A stretch of 64,000 bases of DNA. Origin: a virus. Within the stretch, counting starts at the first letter, position 1; each line of letters starts with the position of its first letter. The stretch lies in IMG/VR virus record IMGVR_UViG_3300045988_141580. One strand, 5' to 3'. Below are positions 2,957 to 64,000 of this stretch, piece by piece. Under the pieces are notes generated by a model. It made no database searches and had not been told where the DNA came from. It was given only the letters and a program-made list of their open reading frames with translations. A program made the position numbers and the translations under genes.

Positions 2957-3532
2957 CTAACCTTTCCAGTCAACCACTATATCAACGGCTTCCTCGATCA
3001 GTCGTTCCACCGCCACATAACGTCTTCCAGTAGGATCCGTCGGGTCAGGCTTGCAGACATTGTCATACTGCTCCTTTGCCTTGGCCTTATCAATCTCCCG
3101 ACATATCCAGATGCCGACTTCCTGACCTGAATTAAGGGTCTCAGCAAGATCAAGCGTCACACCGTCCGTCATATCCACAAACTGTGCAGCAAACGGTCTG
3201 CTCTGAGCCGACTGCACATTGCTCATCTTCTTCGTGCCGTACTTGTCAGCCGTGACAAGATACTCCACGGCCATCTTGTACCGACAGATTGAATCAGTTG
3301 AATTCTTCACCGAAACTTTCACCTTGCGAACCTGATTAGGAAGCTCATTCTTGAGGATGATTGCCCTATACTCGGGACGTGCATTACGCACTGTCATAAT
3401 GGACACATCATCAAAGAGATTGGAAAAATCATCATTGATGACAAGCGTTGATGACTTGAATCCTCCAAGTGACCTACTCGGATTTGTCTGAATGGCATTA
3501 TAGCCTGTTGTCGTAGTATAATAAAGCTGCAT
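2957..3532 (-). CDS. Hypothetical virion-module protein
   Basis: 191-aa ORF downstream of the fibre genes. Confidence 0.65.
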   Translation of the reverse strand: MQLYYTTTTGYNAIQTNPSRSLGGFKSSTLVINDDFSNLFDDVSIMTVRNARPEYRAIILKNELPNQVRKVKVSVKNSTDSICRYKMAVEYLVTADKYGTKKMSNVQSAQSRPFAAQFVDMTDGVTLDLAETLNSGQEVGIWICREIDKAKAKEQYDNVCKPDPTDPTGRRYVAVERLIEEAVDIVVDWKG

Positions 3533-4447: not shown

Positions 4448-6985
4448 TTACTTTTTTACAAACAATTCATCTGCCACACTTGCTCCAGTCTCACAGGCAA
4501 AAGCCTCATAGTCATCTGAACCCTCAGACTTCACAGTAAATTTATCATAGATGGCATCAACCACCTCAATTCTTATCTCAGTTGTTCCTGCTCCACCCGA
4601 CTTCGGACTAACACCCACCCAATTAGCATCAATGGCATCCAAAGCCCACTTCTTGGATGATACAGCCTGAACAGTAGCAGTTCCACCGTCATAAGGAATC
4701 TCAACCCTATGAGGAATAAATACAAACTCACCGCTTCGCTCAAATATGGCAAGCACATCAATCGGATCCACAAATCCCGTGACAGGGTAACTTACAGGAT
4801 TGGCGGTAAATTCCTCATAGTTTACTTCCCAGGACTTAAATGTAAACCCACTTGCGGCCACAGCCGTCAATGTCATTGTGGATCCAGGAGTGAGTGAACC
4901 ACCAACCTCAACTGTACCCCAACCGTTCTGATAAATGGAAACATTCACATCAACAGGCAGATTCAAAACCACTTCAACGAGCTTGTCATCAGTCATCTGC
5001 ACCGTGCCAACCTCACGAATTCCCTTCATCACAACATCCCAGTTCACGGTAACACCTGTCTCAATTTCAAATCGTATGTAGCCCTCTTCATCCGTTGCAC
5101 CTGACAGACCATTACTCAATGTCACAATAGCACCCTGAAGAGGAACTCCATTGATAGCCTTTGTCACAGCAAATGTTAGGTAATAAGATGAACGACGAAT
5201 ATAATCAAGCCACGCACCCCAGAAGACCTCCTTATAGGAAAGAAGATAATTCCTAATAAATAACTCTACATCCTTCTTGATTCTGGCGGAATTAATCTGC
5301 GAATAAATGGCTACAACATCCTTTGAACCCAAAAAACCCTGCCCCACTGGAGATATGGTCGTGACCATATCATTTCCAGCACCGTTCTTCCATGAATGTT
5401 CCTGCACTGGATACCCACCCATCAGCATAGGAACTGAATCACCAATAGATACATTGTATGTCTGATGTCTTGGAAAAAGATACAACGGCTTCACCGTCAC
5501 ACCACCAATCTGCATCGTGACACTGGACTGACCATCTTGAATAATGTATGGAGCCAGATATGCCGTACCATTGGCAAACTTCAAAGGCCTCCCACCATTA
5601 AAATTCAATGTTAAATTTAAATCCCTGTCAGCAAGCACGTTATAAATAACACCTCGTAACCTATACCACACGTTAGAAACAAGGCAAGGGCTATGATCAG
5701 CATCCCTATCAAAAAAGCTATCCGAAATTCGAAGATCAGTAAGGCCGACCTGTTTCAAAACTCCACCATTGGCATCAAAACAGTTAACACCAAAGTCAAT
5801 GTTCTGCGCACCACTTGATAAAGCCTTAACCCACACAGTCACCTCATAGTCCATTCCGGAATAAACCTCAACAGCCTTGGACTTGTTAGTGGAATATAGA
5901 CCACATCGCCCGGAACCTGTCTGAAAAACATACCCATCAGTCGTGTTGATTCTGGAAATACTGCCAACAACAGGATAGTTCTGCATAGAACCAACACCTT
6001 TCATCTCACTGCCACGAAGCCAATCCAAACCATAGTCCCACCCTTTTGAAACGGCATTCACTGATTCCGTGCCGTACCACATAGGAGAGGAATAACCGAC
6101 ACACCACCCAACATTACAAGGTTCCAGAACGGCAAATAGAAACTCACTTGGCCTACCATATCCAAGCAATCTGCGAAGCTCTCTGTTGGGCACACCCTCG
6201 TCAGCAATCTGCGAAGTGCCTCTCTCGCTAAACACCCCTATCCAATCATTGAAAATATTGGTTCGTTCCTCCTGAGTGAATATTGTCTCATATACAATAC
6301 ACCACTGCTCCAGAAACGTCTTCATCAAAACCTCACTGTCCTCTATTCTGCGATACTTTCGTCCATAGACCACTATTATCGCAAATAAATGAGTAATGGC
6401 CAAAAAGAAAGAATTAAAGTCATCAGCATTAATTCTGGAAATATAAATGGGAACAACTCCATGTATATACATCTTTTCAAGGACGTTCCAAGCCCACCCA
6501 ACAACATCCAGATCATTTACATCAAAGAAGCTTTTAAAGCCTGTTCTGTCATACACCACTGAATCAACAGGCTGCATTCCGTCTTCAACAGGCTCGGTAG
6601 ATTCACTTTCAGCACCAATGGTTATCTCCCACTCATCACTGGAAGATATGCCATTCTGCACTGGAGCACCACTGGACGGCATATTCAAAATGTCCTTATC
6701 AAAAAGGATCCTCCCTGAAGGAACTGAACCCTTAACCTTGGTTACATAGTCAAGCACCACCTCAAACGTATCCTTCATATCAAGACACGCCTTTAGAGAT
6801 TCATCATTGACAGTGAACCATTCAGTGTATGTCAGCCCACCGTCAAGCGAATATCTAAATAGGCTTCCGGAGTTAGCTCTCGCCATACGCATAACACAGA
6901 CAAGTCCAGCCAATGGGATTGACTGTGTCTTTACCGTGAATCCTGTCCCGACCTGCGGAAACTCCGCCAATACAAATGAAGCCAT
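4448..6985 (-). CDS. Tail fibre / receptor-binding protein with carbohydrate-binding-type modules
   Basis: 845 aa. CarboxypepD_reg-like segment (GVPLQGAIVTLSNGLSGATDEEGYIRF). InlB-B-repeat-like segment (GSTMTLTAVAASGFTFKSWEV). Complete BACON-like domain (IPYDGGTATVQAVSSKKWALDAIDANWVGVSPKSGGAGTTEIRIEV). Confidence 0.65.
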   Translation of the reverse strand: MASFVLAEFPQVGTGFTVKTQSIPLAGLVCVMRMARANSGSLFRYSLDGGLTYTEWFTVNDESLKACLDMKDTFEVVLDYVTKVKGSVPSGRILFDKDILNMPSSGAPVQNGISSSDEWEITIGAESESTEPVEDGMQPVDSVVYDRTGFKSFFDVNDLDVVGWAWNVLEKMYIHGVVPIYISRINADDFNSFFLAITHLFAIIVVYGRKYRRIEDSEVLMKTFLEQWCIVYETIFTQEERTNIFNDWIGVFSERGTSQIADEGVPNRELRRLLGYGRPSEFLFAVLEPCNVGWCVGYSSPMWYGTESVNAVSKGWDYGLDWLRGSEMKGVGSMQNYPVVGSISRINTTDGYVFQTGSGRCGLYSTNKSKAVEVYSGMDYEVTVWVKALSSGAQNIDFGVNCFDANGGVLKQVGLTDLRISDSFFDRDADHSPCLVSNVWYRLRGVIYNVLADRDLNLTLNFNGGRPLKFANGTAYLAPYIIQDGQSSVTMQIGGVTVKPLYLFPRHQTYNVSIGDSVPMLMGGYPVQEHSWKNGAGNDMVTTISPVGQGFLGSKDVVAIYSQINSARIKKDVELFIRNYLLSYKEVFWGAWLDYIRRSSYYLTFAVTKAINGVPLQGAIVTLSNGLSGATDEEGYIRFEIETGVTVNWDVVMKGIREVGTVQMTDDKLVEVVLNLPVDVNVSIYQNGWGTVEVGGSLTPGSTMTLTAVAASGFTFKSWEVNYEEFTANPVSYPVTGFVDPIDVLAIFERSGEFVFIPHRVEIPYDGGTATVQAVSSKKWALDAIDANWVGVSPKSGGAGTTEIRIEVVDAIYDKFTVKSEGSDDYEAFACETGASVADELFVKK

Positions 6986-7630
6986 CTATTCTCTATACCT
7001 TTTTTGTTTATCCTTTGACACAGAAACCCACCTCGCATAGCTTATCGTAGAATTAGGATTGTGATTCACAACCTTTATCTCATACCCTTTAACACCAAAA
7101 TGTAGACCTAAAAACCGACATTTAGGGACACAATACAAGTAATGTGTCAAACTATCCCGAGTATGTAGATTAAATTCCGTAATAGGCGGATTTTTTGCCA
7201 AATCTATCGTCTGTTGCACTGACCACCATCTTGTATCACGATTCCAGTGTAGAATGGAATCAGGTCGCATCAAAATCACTGTATCTTTATACATAATCTT
7301 CGTCTCAACGACCGTCTTCACCACCTCACGCACCTCACTTGCACGAATCTTTAGTTCTTTTATGGTTGCAGCATCATCTGCCTGACGCTTCTTAAACTCA
7401 TCAACCGTATATTGCAACTCCTGAATGGTGATCACTGCTTCACCTCGCTTTGTCTCGGACAACCGATATTTCATGGTAAGTGCCTCCGTATTACCCTTTT
7501 CACGAAGCCACCGCAACCGTATGTTTCTGGAATAAGTCATAGAAGCAAGCAAAGCCACAACAAGCAACCCCATTATGACCCACTTCCAATTTCTACAGAC
7601 AAATCTCCAGACAACTTTCCACATAATCAC
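6986..7630 (-). CDS. N-terminally membrane-anchored coiled-coil protein
   Basis: Hydrophobic segment WKWVIMGLLVVALLASM followed by a charged helical region. Confidence 0.6.
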   Translation of the reverse strand: MIMWKVVWRFVCRNWKWVIMGLLVVALLASMTYSRNIRLRWLREKGNTEALTMKYRLSETKRGEAVITIQELQYTVDEFKKRQADDAATIKELKIRASEVREVVKTVVETKIMYKDTVILMRPDSILHWNRDTRWWSVQQTIDLAKNPPITEFNLHTRDSLTHYLYCVPKCRFLGLHFGVKGYEIKVVNHNPNSTISYARWVSVSKDKQKRYRE

Positions 7631-39658: not shown

Positions 39659-41440
39659 TCATTCTTTTGTAAACTTCGCTTTATCAAAAGTATCATAAGC
39701 CTTTCTCAACAAATAATCCGTCATATCTTGAGGGTGTCCATTCCTGGCTGCTTCTTGAGCCACCTCAACATCGTGATTAAAAGCTTCAAACTTCTTCTGA
39801 GCAAATTCCTTGGCCTCATCATGAGTAGCACCGTTATTGACGGCTTCCACATATTTTCTGGCTGGCATATCCTTAGACGGATTACCACTACCTACTTCCT
39901 TTAATATAGTTGTAACTTTCTTATTTTTGCCAACCTGTCTAAAAGCATCATAAACCTCAGCCACGGCTCTGTAATAGTCACCACCGACTTTCCCAGACAA
40001 AAACTGCTTTGCACCAGCCTTTGATACGAGAAGTTTAACTTTTTTCCGAGCATTTTCATCTGCTACAAACTTTGCATCACTAAAAGCAACCAGTGCATCC
40101 TTATCCCCTTTACCTGCACGACCTATAGTGTCAGCATAAACTTTATTAGCAAAATCTTCAGCTTCCTTGGCAGTTGCACCATCTCTCAGGGCTTCCAATC
40201 TTTTGAATTCCTTATATTTTGCTTCGAGTCTTTTAGCCTTGAGTTCATCACTATCATCAGGTCTATCCTTTATAAAGGCACGAACTAGCCCCTTAATGTC
40301 CGCTTCAGAAGATTCCTGTTTCTGCTTCTCCTCGACTTCTGCCTTTGCCTTTGTTTCAGCTGCCTCCCTCTTGGCTGCATGACGAGCTCTACGCCTTTCC
40401 TGTCGCTTGGCTCTCTTTTCAGCCTTTCTACGCTCCTCCTCCTCGGCATCCTGCTTGTCAGCGCGATCCTTGAGCTGCTTCACGGTCTCCTTCTGCTCAA
40501 AGTCCTCACCCTCCTTCTTCAGGGCTTCAATCTTCTTGTCATAGGCATCCTGACCGTATTTTTCAACAATCTTGTCCTTATTTTCCTCAAGAATAGAAAT
40601 GTCACGTTTCACGGAGTCACCGTTGCGGGACTGCTTTTCACCTGATTCACCGTCTGGAGCACCCTGTTTCTTTTCACCCTTGTCCTTCTCCTGAGCCGCC
40701 TTGCCGTACTCCTGGCCAACACGATGCAGACGCCTGTTCTTGGCATTGTCAGCATAGCGACCGTGAGCGGCCTTTACAATATCGACGAATGCCGCCCTTG
40801 CATCAGCCAAGTCCTCACGCACGTCAGACAAGTCCTCAGACTTCACAACGTCACAGCACTCATTAAGTGTGTCGCCCCACGATGTCAGATACATACCAAC
40901 CTCTGTCTTCACGGACTTACAGAGCTCTTCATCAATCTCACCAAGCGCAAGTCTTCTCTCCGCATCAGCGGCCACAACGGCACAGGACTTTCTGATGGAA
41001 GAAGCCTGTTCAGCTATCCCAACGTCAACAGTGTTCTCCTCAATGTCATCCTTACCGCCATAGATGGACTTGATGACGTCAGGGCTTGGAACATAGGCAC
41101 GACCCACACGATTCAACTTTCTGTTCTCAAAAGTGTCAGTGTACGTTCCGGCGATTCCCTTCATCATAACACCATCGTTGTCAACTTTCCAGTCAACAAG
41201 CGGCTTGCGATAGTAGAGGGTGCACTGACTACCGTCCTCGTTCGCACAGATTGCTTTCTGCAGACCTGCCATCTCCACTGCAAACTCCTCTCTGTCAGCC
41301 TGTGAAATCTCACCTGCCTGTGACTTCATCATGGTATCCTTGGCGTAGGCGGCAACCTGTGCTTCATCAAACACTTCATAACCATTGAGTAGGGCAACCT
41401 CCCTAAACTTCTCAATCGGAACTAATTTTTTAGTTGTCAT
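39659..41440 (-). CDS. Double NR(K/R)LxRVG-motif protein, paralogue C, with Lys/Glu/Arg-rich centre
   Basis: 593 aa. Motifs GTYTDTFENRKLNRVGRAYV and GRYADNAKNRRLHRVGQEYG. The C-terminal module is paralogous to 38243..39562. Confidence 0.7.
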   Translation of the reverse strand: MTTKKLVPIEKFREVALLNGYEVFDEAQVAAYAKDTMMKSQAGEISQADREEFAVEMAGLQKAICANEDGSQCTLYYRKPLVDWKVDNDGVMMKGIAGTYTDTFENRKLNRVGRAYVPSPDVIKSIYGGKDDIEENTVDVGIAEQASSIRKSCAVVAADAERRLALGEIDEELCKSVKTEVGMYLTSWGDTLNECCDVVKSEDLSDVREDLADARAAFVDIVKAAHGRYADNAKNRRLHRVGQEYGKAAQEKDKGEKKQGAPDGESGEKQSRNGDSVKRDISILEENKDKIVEKYGQDAYDKKIEALKKEGEDFEQKETVKQLKDRADKQDAEEEERRKAEKRAKRQERRRARHAAKREAAETKAKAEVEEKQKQESSEADIKGLVRAFIKDRPDDSDELKAKRLEAKYKEFKRLEALRDGATAKEAEDFANKVYADTIGRAGKGDKDALVAFSDAKFVADENARKKVKLLVSKAGAKQFLSGKVGGDYYRAVAEVYDAFRQVGKNKKVTTILKEVGSGNPSKDMPARKYVEAVNNGATHDEAKEFAQKKFEAFNHDVEVAQEAARNGHPQDMTDYLLRKAYDTFDKAKFTKE

Positions 41441-41524
41441 ATCGTAAAAATTAAAAAGTTTTCATGATACAAATATAGGCAAGTAAAAATTTACCAAAGA
41501 GTCATCGCTCTACCTTTTTATACT

Positions 41525-41557
41525 GCAAATATAATGGACTTTCTATAATTTCCAATG
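41525..41557 (-). promoter_or_regulatory. Phage promoter cassette copy
   Basis: CATTGGAAATTATAGAA-N7-TATATTTGC on the minus strand, 85 nt before ATG 41440. Confidence 0.5.
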
Positions 41558-41853
41558 AACTTTTCACGACTTTTCATAAAAATGTCCACCGTAGAGAACC
41601 TTACTTCCCAGACGGTGGGCTAACTACAAAACGAAAAAGAAGAAACTCTACAAACCTTGAAATCACTGATAAATCTCAATTTTTCGTAAATATGATATGC
41701 AAGCTAAAATTCTACGCAATTTAGGAATGAACCAATCACAAACCTGACCACACTAAAGAAACACTAAACATCGCTTAAATCGTCTAAAAACCGACAAATT
41801 CACCCAATTACAACTTAAAACATAAAATCGTTATAGGCACAAGGCTGAAATTA

Positions 41854-41965
41854 GAGACATAGATGGACTCGAACCACCGTCTACACACTCATTGCGTCTG
41901 CTTTCGTATCTACTTCACGAAACAGCTACATAGAGGGTTGCACTTGCCAGCTATGCTATATGTCT
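41854..41965 (-). tRNA. tRNA-like gene with canonical acceptor, D and T arms but ~38 extra nt in the anticodon/variable region
   Basis: AGACATA/TATGTCT acceptor stem, U8, D-arm GCAT-AGCTGGCAA-GTGC (A14, G18G19, A21), T-arm GGTGG-TTCGAGT-CCATC. 60 nt lie where about 22 are expected; no anticodon could be assigned. Confidence 0.4.
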
Positions 41966-42051
41966 TGTGTCAAGGGAAGAATGTTATATTCTTTGCGGCC
42001 TTAACACACCTACTTAACGCATTTCATCATAGGAATCTCCTATAAGAAAAT

Positions 42052-42071
42052 AGGGTCGCTCCGTCGACCCT
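42052..42071 (-). terminator. Hairpin plus T-run, sequence-related to the 53142 terminator
   Basis: agggtcg/cgaccct stem; on the minus strand it is followed by ATTTTCTTAT. Confidence 0.45.
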
Positions 42072-42333
42072 CTACTGGGCGATAGAAAGGGAGAAGACAA
42101 GACCTCCGACCATAGGGAGGAGTCTCCCTTTCGAAGCCCTCTATTTCAGATGTAGCGTTTCAGTTCCCTTTTCTATATTTCCCTTCAAACTATAACCAAA
42201 AGAATGGTTATGATATGTATTACGACTTTAGGAGTAATACTATCAAATATAACCATTCAAAGCTATAACCCTATACTATAACCCCATCCGCGAAACCCCG
42301 ATAATGTCCTGTGGCACAGTGAATTATGTGAAT

Positions 42334-42417
42334 AATAAAAACCCATCCTTGGACGAATAAAAACCCATCCTTGGACGAATAAAAACCCATCCTTGGACGA
42401 ATAAAAACCCATCCTTG
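42334..42417. repeat. Iteron array: 3.8 tandem copies of the 22-bp unit aataaaaacccatccttggacg
   Basis: Three exact copies at 42334, 42356 and 42378 plus an 18-nt partial at 42400, immediately upstream of the Rep-like gene promoter. Confidence 0.9.
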
Positions 42418-42438
42418 AAAAAATGCCATCAAAATAAA

Positions 42439-42471
42439 TTTGGTATTTTATTAGTCTTAAACTATATTTGC
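42439..42471 (+). promoter_or_regulatory. Bacteroidota-type promoter (-33 TTTG, -7 TATATTTGC) for the Rep-like gene
   Basis: TTTG at 42439..42442 and TATATTTGC at 42463..42471, a 20-nt spacer. Confidence 0.55.
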
Positions 42472-42489
42472 CGTAAAATAAATGAAGTT

Positions 42490-43293
42490 ATGATAGAAAC
42501 AGTAAGATTCCCTATGGAAGTGGATTTTTCAGAATGGAACGTTGCTCAACGAAAATGCTTGTATCTTGTTGCCCAACAGTTACAGCCGTTTTGGGGTAAA
42601 ATAGACTTTGCCAAACTTGATGAAGACTGGGAAACCTATATCAAGTTCTTGAAAAAGGAGCTTAATTTGGATTCCTATTGTTATTTTCACTGTAAAGTGA
42701 ATATTCGTCTATTAAGTGTGCGTAATAAAATTCGTTCTTCTTTTAAGAATGCTCTTATGTCTTTAACTAAAGACTTCTATCTCATAGAAAAGGGGAGTTC
42801 TAAAACTCGTGGCCGCATATTCTTTCCATTTATTAAAATTATATGGGATGAAGTAGATGGAACTAAAAATGAAATAGTTATGGGTCTGGAATCTGTTAGA
42901 TTCTTTTTGGAAGTGCTAAATAATAATTATCGTAATGTTCATATTCCATCTGTTTGCAAGTTGAACTCTACAACATCTATGGATGTTTATGAATTTATTA
43001 GCAAGTACCATTCTTTAGCCCAAGAACAGGGTTCAATAACAATTTCTCTTGAGAAATTTAGAACATTACTTCATATTACTGAAGATACTCCTTGGGCAAG
43101 AATTCAGGAACGCTGGCTAATTCCATCCAGAATGAATTTTATAGATGAACAAACTCTATTGAATTTTAATTTCCAACCTGTTTATAAAGAAGTACCTGAT
43201 CGTCCTATAATTCGAGGTAGAAAGCCTGTTACACACATTCAATTTGAGATTTTCAAACAGGTGCAGGATAAAATTCCAAGTCAGAAACGATAA
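42490..43293 (+). CDS. Putative iteron-binding replication initiator (Rep_3-like)
   Basis: Adjacent to the iterons. The N-terminal WNVAQRKCLYLVAQQL resembles the Rep_3 N-terminal motif. Start moved to ATG 42490 because the promoter lies inside the longer track ORF. Confidence 0.5.
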   Translation: MIETVRFPMEVDFSEWNVAQRKCLYLVAQQLQPFWGKIDFAKLDEDWETYIKFLKKELNLDSYCYFHCKVNIRLLSVRNKIRSSFKNALMSLTKDFYLIEKGSSKTRGRIFFPFIKIIWDEVDGTKNEIVMGLESVRFFLEVLNNNYRNVHIPSVCKLNSTTSMDVYEFISKYHSLAQEQGSITISLEKFRTLLHITEDTPWARIQERWLIPSRMNFIDEQTLLNFNFQPVYKEVPDRPIIRGRKPVTHIQFEIFKQVQDKIPSQKR

Positions 43294-58730: not shown

Positions 58731-58909
58731 GCCAATAGATATTGTTCCACTATTCTGCCGAGCTCCTCCCTGAACTGCCGTGCAGCCAAGGCTTGGCTGC
58801 GATAGAAGCAGAGCTCGGTTCCGTCCTCGAGACGTATTGTGACGGTGTCCGACGTGGCCACCGCATTCCGCACGATGTGTGCGTTTCGTTCCTTTTGTGT
58901 CATATCCAT
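58727..58909 (-). CDS. Small hypothetical protein
   Basis: 60-aa ORF. Confidence 0.5.
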   Translation of the reverse strand: MDMTQKERNAHIVRNAVATSDTVTIRLEDGTELCFYRSQALAARQFREELGRIVEQYLLA

Positions 58910-58933
58910 AAGTTTTTATTATAAGCAAAATTA

Positions 58934-59224
58934 TCACCCCTCTATAACCCTGAATTCACCCTCATACCCCTCTGACAACATAAGCCCTTTCTCTATTTCC
59001 CACTGTGTGTCGTATGCAGAATTGTCCTCCCTGTGATGCCGATACCACTTATCGTAGATGCCACCCCTTGCGTCCCTGATGGCAGCAAGCCTATCCCTAT
59101 CCCTTACCATACGGCTCTGCAGATTATGAAGTTCGTTGATTTTTTGACTAATCTGCAAATCCAGCCCCTTAATCAAAGCTTCGGAACATTTGATACGCTC
59201 CTGAAGTTGTTTCTGTGCATCCAT
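58934..59224 (-). CDS. Small coiled-coil protein
   Basis: 96-aa ORF behind a promoter cassette. Confidence 0.65.
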   Translation of the reverse strand: MDAQKQLQERIKCSEALIKGLDLQISQKINELHNLQSRMVRDRDRLAAIRDARGGIYDKWYRHHREDNSAYDTQWEIEKGLMLSEGYEGEFRVIEG

Positions 59225-59251
59225 AATTTTGATGATTTTAACGATTACGGT

Positions 59252-59283
59252 GCAAAGTTGGTGTATTTTCTTGAATATCCAAT
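59252..59283 (-). promoter_or_regulatory. Phage promoter cassette copy
   Basis: ATTGGATATTCAAGAA-N7-CAACTTTGC. Confidence 0.6.
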
Positions 59284-59489
59284 GAAGTTTTCACGAAAAT
59301 TCTATTACTTACAATTTTAATCATCATAACTCGGGATACCTGAGTGGAGTTATAGGAGTGGTATCCATGAACAGCTTTACATTTTACGTAATTTCGGGAT
59401 TTTTGCTTAATTTCGTTTTATACCCCTCCGGGATTTTGTTATCACACACTTAACATTTGAAATCAGTCACTCATTATCAGTGAATTATA

Positions 59490-59523
59490 TTTTTCACGTC
59501 ATTTTCACACCCAATTTTTCACA
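59490..59523 (+). repeat. Three direct DnaA-box-like 9-mers
   Basis: TTTTTCACG (59490), ATTTTCACA (59501) and TTTTTCACA (59515), compared with the relaxed DnaA box TTWTNCACA. Confidence 0.45.
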
Positions 59524-60009
59524 AAATATCGGCATCCGCCTGTCCCGATGAGCTTCCGTTAAGTACCGAAAATCCCGGAGTTTAGGGAACTGGCCGCTCA
59601 TAGGTGGTGTATCTATGTCGGAAATGCCCTGTCATCGGCTAATTTCGCCCGAAAACAGGCGTGACGTGAGCGAAAGGGATTCTGTGGCGGAGGACTCCGC
59701 ACGGCTCTAAATACCCAGAACCTCTCCACCTAAACCGACCTCTCAAAACCACCACACTATGACCTCAAAACCCACCCAAACCGACCTCAAGATATCCCTA
59801 CTGAACCTGAATCAATACACCCAACCGACCCCTCCTGAACCCTCATACCTCTAAACTGACCCTCCTGACTGAACCCCTCCCCTTGATGTCATTCACCTCA
59901 ATACCCTCAATGCCTGTATTCAAGTGCTCCATATAAGGAAGGATTATCATCCATTATAAGAAATGCTTATCATAGGAATAGGAGGGTATCCTGAATATCA
60001 GGGAGTTGG

Positions 60010-60154
60010 GGAACGTTCTGTTCGAACGTTCCAGGTGTGAACTTCCTACGGAGTTCACACGAAAAGACACACAGGGTCTGGACCAATCTCCATATTCTCT
60101 GTGTGTCTATCAATTATGATCAACTATAAGTTCTGCTTATCGAGGGTGATAAGC
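60010..60154. other. Train of four perfect hairpins
   Basis: 9-bp stem at 60010/60024, 9-bp at 60035/60052, 10-bp at 60065/60099, 7-bp at 60135/60148. Confidence 0.7.
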
Positions 60155-60178
60155 TCTAATTATGCACCTGCCCCCACT

Positions 60179-60466
60179 TTATAGCTTCATCCCCACAGGT
60201 GTTCCATCATCATACCACACATAGTGCTCCACCAGAATATTATACAGAATGCGACGCTCTCCGCACTGCACAAAATCGTCAGTGATGATGGACGGCACAA
60301 GAATGTGACCTTTTATCGGCTCCCTGATAAGCATACACTTGTGATCACAGGCTTCCCTCGTGAACTCCTTCACTCCAGTGTATGCTCTGTAATCGTTTTC
60401 CATCACTCTATACCTCTCACTGTTGAAGTCCAGGCACAGATGTCCAAGACCATCCACTGGATTCAT
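60179..60466 (-). CDS. Hypothetical protein; possible N-terminal extension interrupted by an in-frame TAG
   Basis: 95-aa ORF. In frame upstream: ATG 60562, 18 further codons, TAG at 60505..60503, 12 codons, then ATG 60466. Confidence 0.6.
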   Translation of the reverse strand: MNPVDGLGHLCLDFNSERYRVMENDYRAYTGVKEFTREACDHKCMLIREPIKGHILVPSIITDDFVQCGERRILYNILVEHYVWYDDGTPVGMKL

Positions 60467-60574
60467 CTTGTTCAGCCAAATGTTGGAGCCATCTACACTA
60501 TACTAAATTCTCTTGCCCTGCTTCAAAGCGTTTAGAATCTTAATACATTCATCAATGTTCATAACTTCTTTTCT

Positions 60575-61120
60575 TTATATTGGTTGTTCATCTCTCTTCC
60601 TTATGACGTTCAGCATATAAACCAACGGCAGCGGTCTGCCAATTCTGTCCCTCACTTTTACCACATGGAATCCACCGTCACCGTTCTCACACACCACACA
60701 CGGCTCTCCCGTGACGGCCGTGGACAGCTCCTCCAGTCTATGTCTCGCATTCTCAACGGCTGATAGTAGATCCTGATAGTTTCTCCATTCAGCCCTGTAC
60801 TCCTTCACACCCACGTGACACCCATTCATTCGATCCTCCACAAGAATGCTGTTGAATAGGCGCTTCATCACACGCCACCTTTCCTCATGAAGCGGATAGA
60901 TGCCTATGGCCTCACGCATCTCTCTTCTGTGGTGCAGAACGGTGGCGTGATCACGATTGATGTATCTGCCTGACCTTTCCAGAGGTCGTGGCGTCGTGAG
61001 TAGGCAGTACCACTTTCGTGCCTCAACTATTCGCTCATCTCTGCGATCACCCCTCAACACCTCCGGTGTTATGTCATAGGCCGTACAGACAGCCTTTATT
61101 GCAGCTTCATAGAAATTCAT
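60575..61120 (-). CDS. DnaA domain IV-like (DnaA-box-binding HTH) protein
   Basis: RRDERIVEARKWYCLLTTPRPLERSGRYINRDHATVLHHRREM matches the DnaA C-terminal signature (R..aR..amyL...s...IG....rdHsTV.h). Confidence 0.65.
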   Translation of the reverse strand: MNFYEAAIKAVCTAYDITPEVLRGDRRDERIVEARKWYCLLTTPRPLERSGRYINRDHATVLHHRREMREAIGIYPLHEERWRVMKRLFNSILVEDRMNGCHVGVKEYRAEWRNYQDLLSAVENARHRLEELSTAVTGEPCVVCENGDGGFHVVKVRDRIGRPLPLVYMLNVIRKRDEQPI

Positions 61121-62873: not shown

Positions 62874-62906
62874 GCAAAGTTGCATAATCGTCCTGGAATA
62901 TCCAAG
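62874..62906 (-). promoter_or_regulatory. Phage promoter cassette copy
   Basis: CTTGGATATTCCAGGAC-N7-CAACTTTGC. Confidence 0.6.
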
Positions 62907-63891: not shown

Positions 63892-64000
63892 AATTCTATC
63901 GTTTTAATGTATGTATGCAAATAACGTTCCGTCAGATGTCCAGTCCTTCAGTCAGGCTCTCTATCAAAGGTGGTGACGATAAGTCAGGAGGGGCAGACCC

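Follow-up and report, generated by a model that had tools for sequence, protein, structure and literature searches.

A conserved non-coding module between two operons in a group of ~100-kb gut phages

Why does a phage genome keep almost a kilobase of DNA without a gene? The question is raised by the region at 59-60 kb of the IMG/VR record IMGVR_UViG_3300045988_141580, of which we analysed a stretch of 64,000 nucleotides (hereafter the window). A first, sequence-only reading of this DNA reported that no open reading frame (ORF) of at least 60 aa lies within 59290-60178, which is correct. It proposed that the island is an origin of replication, a packaging region or a large structured RNA, with the caution that sequence alone could not tell these apart. 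Its general view of the island as a complex, functional non-coding element has been borne out, and so has the caution. We find that the island is a real, conserved and unannotated non-coding module, and the best-conserved DNA of its neighbourhood. As to its function, the interpretation that we prefer, with a probability of roughly 35%, is a cis-acting inter-operon transcription-control module with a protein-recognised RNA hairpin, transcribed on the sense strand of the flanking genes.

An independent non-coding module

The genes around the island all lie on the minus strand. Two intervals define the element:

59225..60178 (954 nt), minus strand: gene-free interval, from the stop of ORF 60179-60466 to the ATG of ORF 58934-59224
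59238..60169, minus strand: conserved module, within whose limits homology to relatives begins and ends

Relatives carrying the element were found through exact-pattern and protein-anchored searches, which gave 5 IMG/VR contigs and 7 metagenome contigs. Further assemblies were added via homologues of a 174-aa protein encoded upstream of the island, for a total of 16 distinct full-length copies (contigs are referred to by L numbers). When three conserved blocks of the island were used as IMG/VR queries, the same five contigs were returned each time. Identity over the island is 80-94% in at least 16 distinct relatives. Poor conservation or absence in close relatives, which the sequence-only reading had considered, was thus not seen, and all 16 copies keep the island. 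Compared with the window, the more distant copies are 88-94% identical in the hairpin segment and 84-90% in the core, while their genes for a sigma factor, the 174-aa protein and a DnaA_C protein are 70-79% identical, often present over part of their length, or absent. The homology limits, at ~60169 and ~59238, hold even where the flanking genes differ, and the module borders are mosaic junctions: L004/L006 and L015/L016 have another gene downstream of the island, and in L025 the island directly follows the DnaA_C gene. Since conservation of the island persists beyond such exchanged flanks, we consider it an independent module under strong purifying selection.

Outside this set of relatives, a blastn search of the deposited phages in INPHARED gave no match to the island. 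Two exact-pattern scans of 185,579 species genomes revealed no host-genome copy of the kind expected for an attP site, a CRISPR-repeat mimic or a prophage. Within the window there is no second copy of the island, inverted or otherwise, and only its promoter family, described below, recurs. Deeper relatives (L035, L036, L039 and L044) were reached via homologues of the LPD29 protein encoded downstream of the island, with 41-61% identity in that protein. In L035, L036 and L039 the sigma-factor module is followed by 0.8-1.2 kb of gene-free DNA, to which an ORF-poor stretch in L044 is comparable. Their similarity to the window is limited to short anchors. What the four have in common is the order of parts, namely hairpins, a TA-rich stretch, a G-rich and C-poor tract, and a motif-rich core. 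In L035, L036 and L039 this series follows the sigma-factor gene, 0.5-2 kb further downstream.

Such conservation could in principle reflect a hidden gene for a protein, whether a set of small ORFs or a recoded gene. Several ORFs of 20-47 aa are indeed "conserved", for example a 35-aa ORF at 59494-59601. However, the small ORFs are equally "conserved" in several overlapping frames and on both strands, as DNA conservation alone predicts, and the 35-aa ORF is absent in 3 of the 16 relatives. The variable columns of the alignment lack a 3-base periodicity (core 62/56/51, hairpin part 22/28/21) and thus any third-position excess of substitutions, and the relatives contain indels of 1 and 2 nt. The lack of periodicity, together with the "conservation" of overlapping frames, indicates that the island is non-coding. 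A protein-coding or recoded gene was therefore ruled out, with practically no probability left for it.

Hairpins on the gene-sense strand

The part of the island that is transcribed first, if transcription follows the flanking genes, contains a cluster of hairpins (59933-60154):

60135..60154, minus strand: H1, GCTTATC-ACCCTC-GATAAGC, whose single stem change is a U:G on the minus strand
60061..60108, minus strand: H2, a 10-bp outer stem (AGACACACAG/CTGTGTGTCT) and an inner stem, then TTTT; terminator-like
60035..60060, minus strand: H3, GTGTGAAC..GTTCACAC, with variation confined to loop and bulge bases
60010..60032, minus strand: H4, a 9-bp stem on which a C:G pair closes the pentaloop GAACA; conserved more deeply than any other feature of the island
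59990-60002, minus strand: H5, a short, weak hairpin
59956-59970, minus strand: H6a, a short hairpin with an invariant stem and a variable loop
59933-59947, minus strand: H6b, a short hairpin

The four perfect hairpins that the sequence-only reading had pointed out at 60010-60154 are real, and the cluster folds far beyond shuffled sequences: the 229-nt hairpin segment has a fold z-score of -6.08, with 0 of 200 shuffles as stable. There are no indels in this segment across 16 sequences. Variable columns are much rarer in the stems (10/108) than at unpaired positions (54/121; Fisher 1e-9), and also when loops and bulges alone are compared (16/48; p 4e-4). Examined pair by pair, 46 of the 54 pairs are invariant and two, both in H2, are changed on both sides (AU to GC and CG to UA). 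All six of the one-sided changes at internal stem positions yield G:U or U:G on the minus strand, and A.C mismatches on the plus strand. H2 also shows G:U intermediates that fit the minus strand only. In L036/L044 the equivalent of H3, a hairpin that precedes the GAACA hairpin, shows a G:C to A:U swap and a G:U pair. The hairpin cluster is a structure under selection on the minus, gene-sense strand. Stem changes of the G:U type argue for RNA rather than duplex DNA, and the hairpins most likely act as RNA, the alternative being single-stranded DNA. H2 in particular resembles an intrinsic terminator, with a 10-bp covarying stem followed by UUUU(C). It was not called by a simple pattern scan; the 24-nt apical part between its outer arms exceeds the 3-8 nt loop limit of the scan.

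The deepest conservation is that of the H4 loop. In the window, C-GAACA-G sits on the stem GGAACGTTC/GAACGTTCC. The same loop is found in L036/L044 on the unrelated stem AGACGTCTC/GGGACGTCT, in L039 on the equally unrelated GGACTCTTC/GGAGAGTCC, and in L035 on GGGCGTCC/GGTCGCCC, with a second copy there on CACTCTCC/GGAGAGTG. A U:G pair adjoins the closing pair in L036, L039 and L044. The GAACA hairpin occurs once in the 64-kb window, where the expectation for any given pentaloop on a stem of at least 7 bp is 0.18 per 64 kb. In LPD29-linked phage loci totalling 1.03 Mb it turns up 5 times, each time on the sense strand and in a member of this group of ~100-kb phages. A loop that is retained while its stem is replaced suggests a single-stranded structure on the gene-sense strand, most likely RNA, with a loop recognised in a sequence-specific manner.

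One further pattern was seen at this site. In L035, L036, L039 and L044, TCA(A/T) follows the G of the GAACA loop at a constant distance of 21 nt (from the 23rd base of the GAACAG... string). This spacing resembles that between the -35 and -10 elements of promoters for ECF sigma factors, and it is not found in the window's own clade. Reading GAAC...TCAW by eye as an ECF-sigma promoter was rejected: it fits the four lineages but not the clade of the window, and it leaves the covarying arms unexplained.

Do the hairpins belong to a stand-alone large structured RNA of the GOLLD/ROOL kind that spans most of the island? Its size range and its location in a phage genome would suit such an RNA, as would the high nucleotide conservation, the real sense-strand hairpins and some covariation in the first part of the core, where the following was predicted:

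59604..59722, minus strand: 5' core, with a hairpin GGTTCTGG..TTAGAGCC (59703-59722), GCGGA-loop-TCCGC (59687-59700) and a longer stem-loop (59604-59662)

In this first 140 nt of the core, RNAalifold gives local hairpins with variable loops, in which stem changes are mainly G:U or compensated. Pairs with double changes number 6, against 1.9 in shuffled and 0-4 in slid controls; because the structure was predicted on the same alignment, this support for the helices is only modest. Beyond these local elements the evidence speaks against a global fold. On neither strand does the 456-nt core fold better than its dinucleotide shuffles (z -0.63 and -0.22), and the G-rich tract with the sequence downstream of it shows no fold signal in four lineages (z -0.3 to -1.0); as plus-strand RNA, it is even less structured than shuffles (z +1.5). 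The many long-range complementarities that had been noticed at 59530-59710 are no more than chance would give. Covariation in relatives, which had been recommended as a check, does not exceed the control: all-against-all comparison yielded 71 covarying stacks in antiparallel and 71 in the parallel-orientation control, and the RNAalifold covariation term is ~0. Candidate helices are broken without compensation. This was the case for the long-range pairing CTCCGGGATTTT/AAAATCCCGGAG (changes in L012, L014 and L006) and for the stem ATAACTC/GAGTTAT (changes in L019 and L020), both of which were rejected. Only short anchors survive between lineages, and neither a promoter nor a terminator belonging to such an RNA was found.

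Searches for known families agree with this. Rfam 15 at E <= 10 gave, for 58900-60500, four chance-level snoRNA/lncRNA matches of 13-21 bits and no real family, and the island contains no tRNA or tmRNA. GOLLD, ROOL, HEARO, OLE, the group I/II introns, tmRNA and 6S are among the families covered. A scan of the whole window at the gathering score matches only a tRNA, at 41854-41965. As this is ~17 kb away, a likeness to the large RNAs found near phage tRNA genes is not supported either. With no Rfam match, a large ornate RNA is not supported, and we regard it as very improbable. Of the large structured RNA initially proposed, what stands is the hairpin cluster, a selected single-strand structure on the gene-sense strand; the rest of the island does not behave in this manner.

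The G-rich tract, the core and the question of an origin

Downstream of the hairpins, the island changes in character:

59723..59930, minus strand: tract of TTGAGGTCGGTTTRG-type units, hypervariable, rich in G and poor in C (on plus, rich in C)
59490..59522, minus strand: GTGAAAA(A/T) in three direct copies at intervals of 11-14 nt; the DnaA-box-compatible TTTTTCACA on the plus strand is the first of them
59393-59403 (minus), 59427-59437 (minus) and 59569-59579 (plus): AAAATCCCGRA sites
59389-59396, 59408-59415 and 59640-59647: CGAAATTA sites, 3 inside the island and 3 outside

The C-rich, G-poor tract of the plus strand had been recognised from the sequence. It is real (GC skew -0.72) and reaches further than described, over ~59723-59930. 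In the 16 close relatives the tract measures 92-238 nt, with 38-48% G, 4-10% C and a skew of +0.61 to +0.82. All 16 contain the core motif GGTCGGT, usually in several copies, and the arrangement is otherwise unalignable. A comparable tract exists in L035, L036, L039 and L044, where it ends in TATTTAGA/AATCCGGA, and the L039 tract includes two 60-nt windows without any C. Selection on the tract appears to keep its composition and strand, not its sequence. Just upstream, at 59933..60002 on the minus strand, the DNA is TA-rich with TATAAT/TATATG-like strings directly before the tract, and such -10-like strings occupy this position in all lineages. The short contigs L016, L022 and L027 break inside the tract, suggesting an assembly problem caused by a variable repeat. 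The G-rich windows detected in other LPD29 phages proved to consist of coding DNA, and the detector used for them is therefore unspecific. The main text of the paper on the Bacteroides RNA-binding protein RbpB gives no G/U-rich motif for this protein with which the tract could be compared.

In the core, the AT-rich part with TTTTCAC repeats described earlier is confirmed, with 31-36% GC and three copies of GTGAAAA (TTTTCAC on the other strand), a string with just 10 copies in the whole window. TGAAAA is kept in 16/16 relatives; the "CAC" of the repeats is not strictly kept. A motif similar to these repeats lies upstream of a promoter near 41.55 kb. Short words recur in the island more than expected: 20 7-mers have at least 3 copies (null mean 4.9), and so do 5 8-mers (0.29). 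AAATCCCG has 3 copies in the island and 1 outside, and GAACGTTC has 2 and 2. The motif AATCC[CG]G[AG] reaches 3.1 per kb in the island against 0.06 outside, a 50-fold enrichment, and in L035 7.2 against 0.31 (23-fold). The motifs occur in both orientations and, where inverted copies could pair, their changes are uncompensated. This speaks for proteins binding duplex DNA rather than for RNA helices, and the core is best described as DNA selected for motifs that may be bound by proteins.

These properties bring up the first of the initial proposals, an origin. In its most specific form, the island would be a second or lytic origin primed by transcription, of the R-loop type. The transcript would fold into hairpins, its G-rich part would keep a hybrid with the C-rich template, and DNA synthesis would start near the conserved end of the tract (TATTTAGA/AATCCGGA). 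The motifs and the AT-rich stretch would serve initiator binding and unwinding, and an iteron/Rep_3 locus elsewhere in the window would then belong to a plasmid-type replicon. G-rich RNA hybridised to a C-rich template is a feature of origins in the cases of ColE1 RNA II and mitochondrial CSBII. A phage precedent is the ori of the lactococcal phage c2, which is non-coding, transcribed (PE1-T) and located between early-region promoters (PMC7150918). Like these, the island is non-coding and combines hairpins with a G-rich RNA/C-rich template and then an AT-rich stretch. The strand-asymmetric tract, kept in composition and always in the direction of transcription, fits an origin, as do the TA-rich strings just before it and the repeated motifs in both orientations. 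Unlike in the known systems, the upstream promoter, the hybrid and the initiation site are all putative here, the promoter being represented by candidate strings only.

The evidence for DnaA is similarly divided. A DnaA-domain-IV-like gene had been noted near the island. It is the ORF at 60575-61120 on the minus strand, which carries Pfam Bac_DnaA_C (3.3e-10) and has its stop 397 nt upstream of the island, as in most relatives, but it is missing beside the island in L007, L011, L023 and L039. The GTGAAAA repeats provide three DnaA-box-like sequences, but DnaA boxes (TTWTNCACA) are not enriched: the island has a single exact box (59515-59523) and the window 5, where 6.8 would be expected, and the two GTGAAAA repeats next to the exact box are each one base off consensus.

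A further counter-argument is that the window contains a far more conventional candidate, in a second ORF-poor region (41440-42415) and the gene that follows:

42334-42421: four in-phase tandem 22-bp iterons AATAAAAACCCATCCTTGGACG, three perfect and one 93%
42327-42335: exact DnaA box TTATTCACA, directly before the Rep_3-like gene
42415-43293, plus strand: Rep_3-like initiator ORF, matching phrog_4402 "replication initiation protein" at 1e-9, and Pfam Rep3_N at 21.8 bits where the cut-off is 22.4

Around 42-46 kb, the plus-strand GC skew changes from ~-0.25 to ~0 or +0.1, the sole origin-like change in the window. No switch is found at 59-60 kb; the skew test is a weak one, because skew follows gene strand here. 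The 42.3-kb locus is thus the canonical origin candidate, and probably represents the main or a plasmid-type origin of the phage. Relatives have the same iterons or different ones: 2 exact copies are present in L033, and the L034 contig begins within an array of AAAACCCCCCAAATAGAGGTGT. Compared with Rep_3 iteron origins, the island also has direct repeats (GGTCGGTTT units and GTGAAAA x3) and an AT-rich segment, but its repeats are short, irregularly spaced and imperfect, and Tandem Repeats Finder gives only 68-83% matching units of 22-23 nt in 2-2.9 copies, as opposed to the real 4 x 22 bp array at 42.3 kb. No rep gene adjoins the island in the window.

L035 differs in this respect. In that contig, at 5490-7090, a Rep3_C gene on the opposite strand directly adjoins the island homologue, with iterons of its own beside it (AGCGTGATTCAGGGGGTTTTT at 6515-6600, and further copies near 6838 and 6942). 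This indicates that the replication module is mobile between genome positions, and the neighbourhood can be counted in favour of an origin at the island. On balance, we consider a transcription-primed origin a serious rival, at a lower probability than the control module. In the window, the ORF-poor region at 41440-42415 also contains the tRNA match mentioned above (41854-41965, minus strand; 112 nt, 38 bits, E 2e-4), which was not called by ARAGORN and which possibly represents a tRNA interrupted by an insertion or intron, or else a tRNA-like element.

A signal acting at the level of DNA, in genome entry, at a terminal-repeat boundary or in packaging, is a further alternative. SPO1-like myoviruses have long terminal repeats, and the capsid protein encoded in the window is distantly related to theirs. 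In phage T5, the iss region (for injection stop signal) is untranslated, longer than 1 kb, contains repeats and palindromes and is better conserved than its neighbours, and its order is kept in relatives in which the adjacent coding DNA is not conserved (10.1101/866236). This description fits the island, which like the iss is a gene-free stretch of ~1-1.7 kb following a very early gene block. Yet the island has no paired DnaA boxes and no distant inverted partner within the window, and its hairpins, with stem changes of the G:U type, look like RNA rather than duplex DNA. The long contigs are permuted and none of them ends at the island, which also argues against the packaging region initially considered. 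Several end near iteron arrays, and one starts inside an array. These contig ends were examined as possible genome termini and rejected, their clustering near the arrays being an assembly effect. A DNA-level signal of this type is, in our view, quite unlikely.

A putative control module at an operon border

The far end of the island carries the last of its elements:

59240..59290, minus strand: promoter for the downstream operon, TTGGATATTCAAGAA-N8-CCAACTTTGC-N4-GTAATCG, with Bacteroides-type -33/-7 geometry

The Bacteroides -33/-7 consensus (TAnnTTTG-like) is widely cited. In the window, the family to which this promoter belongs has sites at 62874, 59252, 58219, 57536, 53049 and ~41530-41570, all on the minus strand. 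Their consensus is TTGGA(T/A)ATTC-AAGAA ... [C/T]A-N2-TTTG ... GTAATC(A/G)TTAA, and they precede start codons by ~25-40 nt. The island end in L036, L039 and L044 likewise has a promoter of this family. The module borders of mosaic relatives fall at promoters of this family, suggesting that these serve as recombination joints. In addition, CCAACATTTGGC at 60467-60500 (minus strand), ~15 nt upstream of the ATG of ORF 60179-60466, resembles a variant -7 box, and the small gene preceding the island may thus have its own promoter.

How could these parts work together? In the transcription-control reading that we favour, at least the first third of the island would be transcribed on the gene-sense strand. 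On leaving the early sigma-factor operon, RNA polymerase would transcribe the hairpin cluster, where H2 with its U-run would stop or pause part of the polymerases and the hairpins would protect the resulting 3' end. H4, a stable stem with the loop C-GAACA-G (GNRA-like, G-A-A-N-A, of the lambda boxB kind), would be the site for a phage or host protein, and the bound protein would decide the fate of the transcript by termination/antitermination or processing. The G-rich, C-poor tract would yield an RNA on which Rho cannot load, and one that might tend to form G-quadruplexes or RNA:DNA hybrids. Dense in motifs and rich in AT, the DNA that follows (AAAATCCCGRA, GTGAAAA and CGAAATTA in both orientations) would form an array of protein sites before the promoter, at which transcription would restart for the next operon. 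We infer every protein partner and the termination/antitermination logic in this scheme.

One of the nearest known relations is the lambda nut site, in which boxB, a 5-bp stem with a GNRA-like pentaloop, is bound by N; other systems of processive antitermination that depend on hairpins belong with it. In the lambda site and the island alike, a sense-strand hairpin lies just after an early operon, at the border to the next transcription unit, and has a five-base G-A-A-N-A loop on a stem whose sequence is free to change; the match is one of shape only. The island differs in composition, its tract being rich in G and poor in C where the rut sites around lambda boxB are the opposite, and in that its H4-type stems are 9-10 bp long rather than 5 bp.

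This last difference is one of several points that weigh against the control module. The 5' end of the island showed no promoter, and downstream of H4 the window showed no canonical terminator. Simple terminator scans drew a blank in both the L036 island and the L039 island, and in L035 they gave nothing on the sense strand upstream of its GAACA hairpin; among the window, L035, L036 and L039, the single terminator-like site downstream of this hairpin on the sense strand is in the L035 core (5124-5144). Neither an arginine-rich N-like or NusG-like protein nor a boxA, an element without a definition in Bacteroidota, was identified near the island, and the neighbouring small proteins have no family matches. 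The G-rich tract is explained weakly by such a module, and the repeated GGTCGGTTT unit not at all; a "regulatory" spacer of 700 nt is unusually long; and the hairpins could equally act in single-stranded DNA.

The genomic setting is that of a myovirus, with genes for tail sheath, baseplate, portal and major head protein in the window, and the relatives assemble as contigs of 96-107 kb. The portal and major head protein genes (~30-37 kb) are the head and packaging genes identified, and no ORF matches a terminase family. The host of these gut phages is very probably a member of the Bacteroidota, to judge from the promoter geometry, the capsid homologues and the BACON-domain genes that lie directly upstream in relatives. 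The nearest cultured homologues of the capsid protein are those of the Bacteroides DAC phages, at 35% identity, the others coming from uncultured fecal phages. Upstream of the island are genes for a ferritin/Dps-like protein, an ECF-type sigma factor, the 174-aa protein and the DnaA-domain-IV protein. Downstream are small ORFs followed by genes for the LPD29/DnaJ protein, a Dam methylase and a UvrD-type helicase. At the very end of the window, 63947-63991 is one arm of a 45-nt inverted repeat (98% complementary) seen in relatives. In L003 its arms (1219-1263 and 3150-3194) flank ~1.9 kb upstream of the ferritin-like gene, in the BACON-gene region. The segment between the arms may be invertible DNA, as is common in Bacteroides.

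In gut Bacteroidota phages, the timing of gene expression and the start of replication are almost uncharted. Our findings raise the possibility, still a tentative one, that the island is a phage cis-element of an undescribed type. It would combine a protein-recognised GAACA-pentaloop RNA hairpin with a G-rich tract selected for composition and prone to R-loops or G-quadruplexes. Its role would be that of a lytic origin primed by transcription, in phages equipped with a Rep_3 replicon of plasmid type as well, or that of a new antitermination switch in Bacteroidota phages. The module is common to a whole group of ~100-kb gut phages, and its C-GAACA-G hairpin and G-rich tract offer experimental handles. 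If either of these roles is true, the module would represent a new regulatory principle for abundant uncultured phages, and would serve as an annotation marker for related genomes.

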